A DNA stretch of 64,000 bases from the NCBI RefSeq assembly GCF_045037415.1, contig NZ_CP173438.1. One strand, written 5' to 3'. The DNA comes from Escherichia coli. GTDB lineage: Bacteria; Pseudomonadota; Gammaproteobacteria; Enterobacterales; Enterobacteriaceae. This document shows, piece by piece, positions 29,192 to 31,525 of this stretch. The notes under the pieces were generated by a model. That model was not told where the DNA came from, ran no database searches, and saw only the letters and a program-made list of their open reading frames with translations. Every line of letters starts with the position of its first letter. Positions within the stretch are counted from its first letter, which is position 1. Position numbers and translations under genes: made by a program.

Positions 29192-31525
29192 TTGGCCAAC
29201 TCATCCTCACGATATTCCGTTCTGACTGCCGCCCACTGGGGGCCTATGCTGGTTGAAACCGACGGCGAAACCGTGTTTAGCTCGCGTGGCGCGTTAGCCA
29301 CAGGAATGGAAAACTCCTTGCAGAGCGCGGTTCGCGACCAGGTTCACAGCAATACGCGGGTGCGATTTCCAATGGTGCGCAAAGGCTTTCTTGCGTCACC
29401 GGAAAATCCGCAAGGCATTCGTGGGCAGGATGAATTTGTTCGCGTGAGTTGGGATGAGGCGCTGGAGCTTATTCACCATCAACATAAACGCATTCGTGAG
29501 GCTTATGGTCCGGCATCGATTTTTGCTGGTTCCTACGGCTGGCGTTCAAACGGCGTGCTGCATAAGGCCTCGACATTATTACAACGCTATATGGCGTTGG
29601 CAGGCGGTTATACTGGGCATCTGGGGGATTATTCGACCGGCGCGGCACAGGCGATCATGCCGTATGTCGTGGGTGGCAGCGAAGTTTATCAACAGCAAAC
29701 CAGTTGGCCGCTGGTGCTGGAACATAGCGATGTCGTGGTGCTGTGGAGTGCTAACCCACTCAATACGCTGAAAATTGCGTGGAATGCATCCGATGAGCAG
29801 GGGCTTTCTTACTTTTCCGCACTGCGTGACAGCGGGAAAAAGCTGATCTGCATTGATCCAATGCGATCGGAAACCGTCGATTTCTTTGGCGATAAAATGG
29901 AGTGGGTGGCACCGCACATGGGCACCGATGTTGCGTTGATGCTGGGGATCGCCCATACGCTGGTGGAAAATGGTTGGCACGACGAAGCGTTTCTGGCGCG
30001 TTGCACCACAGGTTATGCTGTCTTCGCCTCTTATTTGCTGGGCGAGAGTGACGGAATAGCGAAAAACGCCGAATGGGCGGCAGAGATTTGTGGTGTTGGC
30101 GCAGCGAAAATCCGCGAGCTGGCGGCTATTTTCCACCAAAATACAACCATGCTGATGGCAGGCTGGGGAATGCAGCGCCAACAGTTTGGTGAGCAAAAAC
30201 ACTGGATGATCGTCACGCTGGCGGCAATGTTGGGGCAAATCGGCACACCCGGCGGCGGTTTTGGTCTTTCTTACCATTTTGCCAATGGTGGTAACCCCAC
30301 GCGCCGCGCTGCGGTGCTCTCTTCCATGCAGGGCAGCTTGCCGGGTGGCACCGATGCGGTAGATAAAATCCCTGTCGCCCGCATTGTTGAAGCACTGGAA
30401 AACCCTGGTGGCGCATATCAACATAACGGTATGGACCGACATTTCCCGGATATTCGTTTTATCTGGTGGGCGGGTGGTGCCAACTTTACTCATCATCAGG
30501 ATACCAATCGCCTGATCCGTGCCTGGCAAAAACCGGAGCTGGTGGTGATCTCCGAATGCTTCTGGACGGCTGCGGCGAAACACGCGGATATCGTTCTGCC
30601 TGCGACCACCTCTTTTGAGCGTAATGATCTCACCATGACCGGTGATTACAGTAATCAGCATCTGGTGCCGATGAAGCAAGTGGTGCCGCCACGCGATGAA
30701 GCGCGTAATGATTTTGATGTTTTTGCCGAGTTGAGTGAACGTTGGGAGAAGGGCGGTTATGCACGTTTTACGGAAGGAAAAAGTGAGCTGCAATGGCTGG
30801 AAACGTTTTATAACGTTGCCCGGCAGCGCGGGGCAAGCCAGCAGGTTGAATTGCCGCCATTTGCTGAGTTCTGGCAAGCCAACCAGTTAATTGAGATGCC
30901 GGAAAACCCGGACAGTGAGCGGTTTATTCGCTTCGCCGATTTTCGCCGCGATCCGCAGGCGCATCCATTAAAAACCGCCAGCGGTAAGATTGAAATCTTC
31001 TCGCAGCGTATTGCCGATTACGCTTATCCGGATTGCCCGGGGCATCCAATGTGGCTGGCGCCGGACGAATGGCAGGGTAATGCCGAACCGGAACAGTTGC
31101 AGGTACTTTCTGCTCATCCGGCGCATCGTCTGCACAGCCAGCTGAATTACAGTTCTCTGCGCGAATTGTACGCGGTGGCAAATCGTGAGCCTGTCACCAT
31201 TCATCCTGACGATGCCCAGACGCGCGGCATACAAGATGGCGATACTGTTCGGCTGTGGAACTCACGCGGGCAAATTCTTGCCGGCGCGGTCATTAGCGAG
31301 GGAATTAAACCTGGCGTGATTTGTATTCACGAAGGCGCATGGCCGGATTTGGATTTAACCGCTGACGGCATTTGTAAAAACGGCGCAGTGAACGTGCTGA
31401 CCAAAGATCTCCCCAGCTCGCGGCTGGGGAATGGCTGTGCGGGTAATACGGCGCTGGCATGGCTGGAAAAATACAACGGTCCGGAACTGACAGTTACAGC
31501 GTTTGAACCACCGGCCAGCTCATAA
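29192..31525 (+). CDS. bisC: Biotin sulfoxide reductase (molybdopterin oxidoreductase), 777 aa
   Basis: Complete ORF recognised as BisC. Confidence 0.9.

Follow-up and report, generated by a model that had tools for sequence, protein, structure and literature searches.

Convergent bisC and yiaC of Escherichia coli share 32 bp of coding sequence in an arrangement conserved throughout the Enterobacteriaceae

The genes bisC and yiaC of Escherichia coli, which lie on opposite strands and converge, run into each other at their 3′ ends. Very probably this is a genuine and ancient overlap of two functional genes that has been kept as a frozen accident. The evidence comes from the geometry of the locus, from its conservation among species, from the pattern of substitution within the shared bases and from published maps of transcription, and it is set out below with the alternatives that were weighed.

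Geometry and Annotation of the Overlap

The window, that is, the whole stretch of E. coli DNA that was analysed (64,000 nucleotides of contig NZ_CP173438.1, assembly GCF_045037415.1), holds the following features at this locus.

29192 to 31525, plus strand: bisC, biotin sulfoxide reductase, 777 aa, TTG start (ORF list, RefSeq; Pfam Molybdopterin, Molydop_binding and Molybdopterin_N)
31494 to 31934, minus strand: yiaC, GNAT lysine acetyltransferase, 146 aa (ORF list, Pfam GNAT, RefSeq)
31931 to 32494, minus strand: tag, 3-methyladenine DNA glycosylase I, 187 aa (RefSeq; Pfam Adenine_glyco at residues 6-182), the upstream gene of the tag-yiaC unit
31494 to 31525, both strands: doubly coding segment in phase 123:132, which codes for BisC 769-777 and the stop on the plus strand and for YiaC 138-146 and the stop on the minus strand
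31931 to 31934, minus strand: ATGA shared by the tag stop and the yiaC start, a junction of the translational-coupling type
31223 to 31493, minus strand: untranslated RNA that continues the tag-yiaC transcript past the yiaC stop, antisense to the 3′ end of bisC, C-rich, G-poor and rut-like, ending in a region of Rho-dependent termination (best coordinate about 31242)

For each gene the shared 32 bp are made up of 3 stop bases and 29 coding bases. The bisC stop is the TAA at 31523-31525 on the plus strand, and the yiaC stop, also TAA, is read on the minus strand as the reverse complement of 31494-31496. The first-pass annotation had described a tail-to-tail overlap of 32 bp for bisC and yiaC and one of 4 bp for yiaC and tag, and both descriptions are exact. 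The former agrees with the sequence, with the ORF list and with RefSeq, which places the genes in just this way in strain SK1144, whose sequence matches the window at 100% identity, and gives the same 32 shared bp in K-12 MG1655 (yiaC 3713652-3714092, bisC 3714061-3716394). The latter is seen directly at 31931-31934, where the TGA of tag overlaps the ATG of yiaC. The locus was found in 5,421 of 5,426 complete genomes at a coverage of at least 80%, always annotated in the order tag, yiaC, bisC. Being present in the reference annotation, the bisC/yiaC arrangement is already known; the 4-nt overlap of tag and yiaC was stated by Christensen et al. 2018 (PMC6199490), who also identified YiaC as a lysine acetyltransferase by experiment.

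Conservation of the Arrangement and of Both Stops

One genome per species was taken, which gave 80 loci from more than 25 genera, all Enterobacteriaceae; the three genes were placed by tblastn and each frame was walked to its stop. The tag-yiaC pair is convergent with bisC in 79 of these 80 loci, with a CDS overlap of 32, 38 or 23 bp. The 32-bp form is found in Escherichia, Citrobacter, Salmonella, K. pneumoniae and Raoultella, the 38-bp form in Enterobacter, Phytobacter, Kosakonia, Lelliottia and K. oxytoca, and the 23-bp form in Mangrovibacter, Kluyvera and one C. amalonaticus. The yiaC ATG and the bisC stop are almost always 410 nt apart (three loci have 407 or 413 nt), which means that yiaC and the junction have been essentially free of indels. 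At the other end of yiaC, the overlap with tag varies, from 4 bp in Escherichia to 23, 20, 11 or 1 bp in other genera.

The orthologue alignments extend into the shared segment from both sides. Residues P134, T135, W136, M138 and W140 of YiaC are invariant; homology with distant relatives (35-47% identity) ends at residue 140-141, and in the AlphaFold2 model (pLDDT 94.5) the last β-strand spans 133-140, followed by coil at 141-146 with a pLDDT below 50 at 144-146. BisC ends in …LTAFDPPA[S/N][S/A/P] throughout the surveyed species. Its tail aligns with the C-terminal strand of the DMSO reductase structures of R. sphaeroides and R. capsulatus and also with PDB-annotated TMAO reductases, the structures being those of DorA, TorA and MtsZ; the alignment to these solved homologues reaches residue 775 of 777, 2-4 residues from their own ends. 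All three products fall into known Pfam families, namely GNAT (YiaC), molybdopterin oxidoreductase (BisC) and methyladenine glycosylase (Tag). Pfam, orthologue conservation, RefSeq and the experiment on YiaC together establish bisC and yiaC as genuine protein-coding genes. The stop codons of the ORF list, which the first-pass annotation had proposed to confirm against orthologues, withstood that comparison: they are kept family-wide, and no earlier end was found for either bisC or yiaC. As judged from sequence, then, neither stop is an artefact.

[quoted passage not shown] What goes beyond chance is not the length but the conservation of the overlap over so many species and genera.

Dual Coding within the 32 bp

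In the 123:132 phase, codon positions 1, 2 and 3 of bisC face positions 1, 3 and 2 of yiaC, and the stop codon of each gene is interlocked with sense codons of the other. Opposite the bisC stop (TAA or TGA) lie the complementary YiaC Ile137-Met138 codons (ATT or ATC, then ATG), and whether a species has TAA or TGA depends on which of the synonymous Ile codons yiaC uses. Conversely, the yiaC stop (TAA) lies opposite the complementary Leu and Thr codons of BisC (CTT ACN). Where the Leu codon is CTG or CTA, yiaC continues for two codons to the next CTT AC; a synonymous change in BisC thus moves the yiaC stop and gives rise to the 32- and 38-bp variants.

The conserved parts of the two proteins lie next to each other. 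BisC is conserved through Pro774/Ala775 (31513-31516) and YiaC through Trp140 (31515-31517), so the cores abut on the DNA. The conserved BisC end TAFDPP (31496-31513) faces the YiaC tail, while the conserved I-M-x-W of YiaC faces the three last and variable residues of BisC. Because it faces TAFDPP, the YiaC tail is QADQTP-like throughout the family, even though it is unstructured and unrelated to the tails of outgroup proteins.

Synonymous variation is strongly suppressed in the overlap. Over 79 species, the entropy at bisC third positions was 0.53 bits inside the overlap and 1.33 outside it (Mann-Whitney p = 2.5e-5); the corresponding values for yiaC were 0.25 and 1.29 bits (p = 4e-6), and the mean over all sites was 0.35 bits inside and 0.80 outside.

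Origin of the Arrangement

A Dickeya homologue of YiaC (45% identity) sits in a glyQS-tag-yiaC context without bisC, and so does that of a second relative (41% identity). In these two outgroup contexts yiaC is followed by a spacer of 470-550 nt and then by a gene for a 2-hydroxyacid dehydrogenase or by GDT1 and a yiaD-like gene, and the YiaC tails beyond the core differ, being 3-20 aa long and unlike in sequence. One further context (P0159, L086) was on a frameshift-ridden contig and was left out of the comparison. On the basis of the two contexts, tag-yiaC is an older unit than its juxtaposition with bisC, and the tight bisC-yiaC juxtaposition appears to be specific to Enterobacteriaceae. Either bisC could have entered the genome of an enterobacterial ancestor, or other families could have lost it. 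In Intestinirhabdus alba bisC has been deleted, leaving a remnant of some 45 N-terminal residues, which align with BisC 3-47, and about 13 codons at the very end of bisC (…PLPLTAFDPPAST and the stop); the 3′ codons retained are exactly those that carry the yiaC tail and stop.

We propose that bisC was placed 3′ end to 3′ end against the older tag-yiaC pair, which would have brought the two protein cores to abut. Each gene would then read a few codons into the antisense of its partner's core until the first stop was reached, BisC thereby gaining 2-3 variable residues and YiaC an unstructured tail of 3-8 residues. At the stop frequency given above, there is nothing to explain in 3-8 open codons, and the tails are if anything short. 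From that point on the overlap would be held by dual purifying selection, which we infer from the absence of indels together with the suppressed synonymous variation, and separation of the genes would be blocked, as any indel would damage both proteins. Two considerations speak against a frozen accident in its pure form. Stops within 3-8 codons of each core, where about one in 43 codons would be a stop, suggest some selection for short tails, and a selected regulatory overlap would likewise predict perfect conservation throughout the family.

Transcription, Termination, and Alternative Explanations

Since bisC and yiaC have no intergenic space, each mRNA is complementary to the other over 32 nt or more. 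That transcripts run into the opposite gene, as the first-pass annotation had argued, is logically forced, and both the Rho region past the yiaC stop and the ExcludonFinder listing considered below agree with it. The absence of room for a terminator between the genes is nevertheless not the absence of a termination signal, as a transcript can end inside the partner gene, and here this occurs by Rho. Supplementary file 2 of Adams et al. 2021 (PMC7815308) has an entry for a Rho termination region classified as “antisense bisC” with its best coordinate at K-12 3714344 (+), an approximate position because the Rho score uses 800-nt windows, obtained in one condition (LB, OD 0.5). In that region the coverage upstream and downstream was 90 and 23 without BCM and 60 and 112 with BCM, for a Rho score of 7.3 (p = 5e-14). 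By our own coordinate arithmetic, K-12 3714344 is 252 nt past the yiaC stop, at about 31242 of the window on the minus strand. According to the published table, bicyclomycin raises read-through past yiaC, which is the behavior of a Rho-dependent terminator. The C/G ratio is mostly 1.3-1.8 over the roughly 270 nt after the yiaC stop (about 1.0-1.1 near +66 to +156), and in its C-rich, G-poor composition this RNA is like a rut region. The factor that terminates tag-yiaC is Rho, acting about 250 nt into the bisC antisense, with the position known coarsely. The tables of Adams et al. contain neither a bisC 3′ end nor any yiaC entry that we could find, and a search for known or structured RNA at the junction gave zero Rfam matches at E ≤ 1 over 29000-33500.

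Regulation by the sense/antisense overlap is possible and is a candidate role; the first-pass annotation, too, had raised mutual antisense or interference as no more than a potential. In its strongest form, the overlap would be a selected excludon in which convergent transcription or the RNA duplex makes the expression of tag-yiaC and bisC mutually antagonistic, by transcriptional interference or by RNase III cleavage of the duplex. We regard this as unlikely. ExcludonFinder (NAR 2025, PMC12288877) does include yiaC-bisC in its MG1655 “excludome”, where 165 convergent transcript overlaps were each seen in 50% or more of 58 RNA-seq data sets, the tag-yiaC RNA does reach some 250 nt antisense into bisC, and the arrangement is kept in all but one of the surveyed species. 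However, any CDS overlap forces a transcript overlap, so that the listing adds nothing on function, and the conservation is fully accounted for by the dual coding constraint. The antisense extension is limited by Rho, the tag-yiaC strand is thinly covered by reads (90 per 800 nt), nothing obvious sets the two functions against each other, and the literature searched contained no report of anticorrelated expression, RNase III dependence or a phenotype. If the excludon did exist, it would link the repair of sulfoxides with that of alkylated DNA and with protein acylation. The broader claim that the overlap is a regulatory device selected family-wide, which would explain, beyond what coding constraint does by itself, why the genes have never been separated in any enterobacterial lineage, seems to us slightly less likely again.

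No more probable than that claim is a reading by which each transcript ends at an intrinsic terminator embedded in the partner CDS. The candidate for tag-yiaC is a GC-rich hairpin at 31431..31409 on the minus strand, which the scan places 63 nt past the yiaC stop; those for bisC, on the plus strand, are a 9-bp hairpin at 31554-31590 (11 bp in the fold) and a hairpin with T6 at 32322-32339, inside tag, which folds somewhat better than shuffled sequences (z = -2.0). Intrinsic terminators have also been predicted in 20% of the E. coli genes with convergent overlaps (Lillo & Krakauer, PMC2174442). Against these points, terminator-like sites are not in excess (4, compared with 2.8 ± 1.9 in shuffles) and the folds 3′ of the two stops do not stand out (z = -0.2 to -1.4). 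The minus-strand hairpin has a poor U-tract and is intact in only 43 of 79 species, with unconvincing compensatory change. Moreover, Adams et al. (PMC7815308) list zero Term-seq 3′ ends at K-12 3713600-3714199, and the termination that they did detect is BCM-sensitive. With scan and folds at background, a hairpin lacking convincing covariation and no Term-seq ends, intrinsic terminators within the partner gene were rejected.

Hardly credible at all is an annotation artefact, in which one gene would end, or be functionally complete, before its ORF-track stop: the Pfam envelopes do stop short of the tails (at about residue 123 of YiaC and 741 of BisC) and YiaC 141-146 is predicted to be unstructured, but zero in-frame stops precede the annotated ones, the conserved strands of YiaC (…PTWIMxW, 133-140) and BisC (…LTAFDPP) extend into or up to the shared segment, and even minimal cores abut or overlap, so that translation must cover the shared bases, and the alignments to orthologues and structural homologues led us to reject it.

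Comparison with Known Systems

The pair has every defining feature of the conserved convergent overlaps, being two functional genes on opposite strands that share more than 15 nt (and fewer than 50 bp) in many genomes, and it shows no essential difference from that class. Rogozin et al. reportedly described, in 2002, 71 conserved pairs of convergent genes that overlap by more than 15 nt and show the same preference of phase. As in other overlaps of the 123:132 class, codon position 2 of one gene pairs with position 3 of the other. Lillo & Krakauer 2007 (PMC2174442) counted 58 convergent overlaps in E. coli, the present pair being one of about that number, and found 123:132 to be the commonest convergent phase. 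It accounts for 46% of the E. coli cases and for 49% of the 1,218 overlaps from 58 genomes, and it prevails above all at lengths below about 50 bp.

The BCM-sensitive drop in coverage past the yiaC stop, in a region where C exceeds G, resembles Rho-dependent termination of antisense RNA. Such termination of untranslated or antisense RNA 3′ of a stop codon was reportedly described by Peters et al. in 2012. The present case is an ordinary instance, whose only particularity is that the entire 3′ UTR lies inside another CDS. Bidirectional intrinsic terminators between convergent genes, which Ju et al. reportedly described in 2019, likewise end two convergent units in a small space. They differ from the bisC/yiaC junction, which has no intergenic space and falls outside that class, and neither the terminator scan nor the folds revealed an A-tract/hairpin/U-tract element at or near it. 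With excludons the pair has in common that the neighbors are convergent and, by published data, have overlapping transcripts (PMC12288877). Classical excludons have long UTR overlaps and demonstrated mutually exclusive expression, whereas the bisC/yiaC overlap begins in the CDSs.

Implications

The bisC/yiaC overlap is real, ancient and well explained but ordinary, already annotated and catalogued, and it opens no new questions. The pair-specific additions made here are modest: the family-wide conservation, the stop-codon interlock, the tails imposed by the partner gene and the outgroup contexts that lack bisC. For the depth of the conservation in the family and for the interlock, we found no earlier description of this pair.

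In practice the locus is useful for checking annotation: both stops are correct, and the overlap calls for no “correction”. Deleting or tagging either 3′ end alters the partner, as a C-terminal tag on YiaC hits BisC 769-777, and vice versa. The locus also serves as a teaching example of dual coding that suppresses synonymous change, of a synonymous change in one gene that shifts the stop codon of the other, and of Rho managing termination where there is no intergenic space.

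Hairpins Downstream of the bisC Stop Codon

Two plus-strand candidates for hairpin formation lie downstream of the bisC stop codon, each antisense to the gene that contains it:

31554-31590, plus strand: perfect 9-bp inverted repeat CCATGCGCA…TGCGCATGG, inside yiaC and antisense to it
32322-32345, plus strand: hairpin GCGCGA…TCGCGT followed by TTTTTT, inside tag and antisense to it

The inverted repeat, which is located 29 nt downstream of the bisC stop codon, extends to 11 bp when folded and encloses a loop of 19 nt. Of the 79 species, just 18 retain all nine pairs (9/9), and the repeat has no U-tract. 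The hairpin within tag is situated about 800 nt 3' of the bisC stop codon, and its fold is somewhat better than that of the shuffled sequences (z = -2.0). This hairpin could be the end point of bisC read-through.

Reading Frames and Start Codons

The annotated start codon of bisC in this strain is TTG (29192) and, judged by length, that of the K-12 gene is TTG as well. A stop-free ORF of 432 amino acids runs antisense inside bisC (29579-30877, minus strand; phase 123:321); it is regarded as a long open frame of the kind commonly seen opposite coding sequences and not as a gene. On the minus strand, the open tag frame can be extended upstream over 32494-32731 as far as a GTG at 32731, giving a product of 266 amino acids, and the extended frame traverses the yhjY start region. 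Annotation and Pfam support place the tag start at the ATG at 32494.

Loci without an Intact bisC

In Intestinirhabdus alba (L067, 4380-4620), nearly all of bisC has been deleted, and two remnants border the deletion on either side: an N-terminal one of about 45 residues, matching BisC residues 3-47, and a C-terminal one consisting of the last ~13 codons (…PLPLTAFDPPAST*). The yiaC gene of this species has retained its tail and stop codon. The outgroup relatives (L083-L085, from Dickeya, and L087-L089) keep glyQ-glyS and tag-yiaC and have no bisC; a non-coding spacer of 470-550 nt follows yiaC, and beyond it lies either a 2-hydroxyacid dehydrogenase gene or GDT1 with a yiaD-like gene. One further contig (L086, ENA contig_17) preserves the synteny of tag, yiaC, bisC, and yiaD with every gene split into short ORFs. 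This contig, probably a degraded genome or an assembly with many errors, was left out of the analysis.

The tag/yiaC Junction

The tag and yiaC genes share a short same-strand overlap:

31931-31934, minus strand: 4-bp tag/yiaC overlap, ATGA

Taking the yiaC start, by assumption, as the aligned Met1, overlap lengths were compared across the Enterobacteriaceae loci (L003-L082). The 4-bp overlap is limited to Escherichia and a few other genera, the tag frame overruns 23 bp of yiaC in most Enterobacteriaceae, and the remaining loci overlap by 20, 11, or 1 bp. The tag/yiaC junction is far more plastic than the bisC/yiaC junction.
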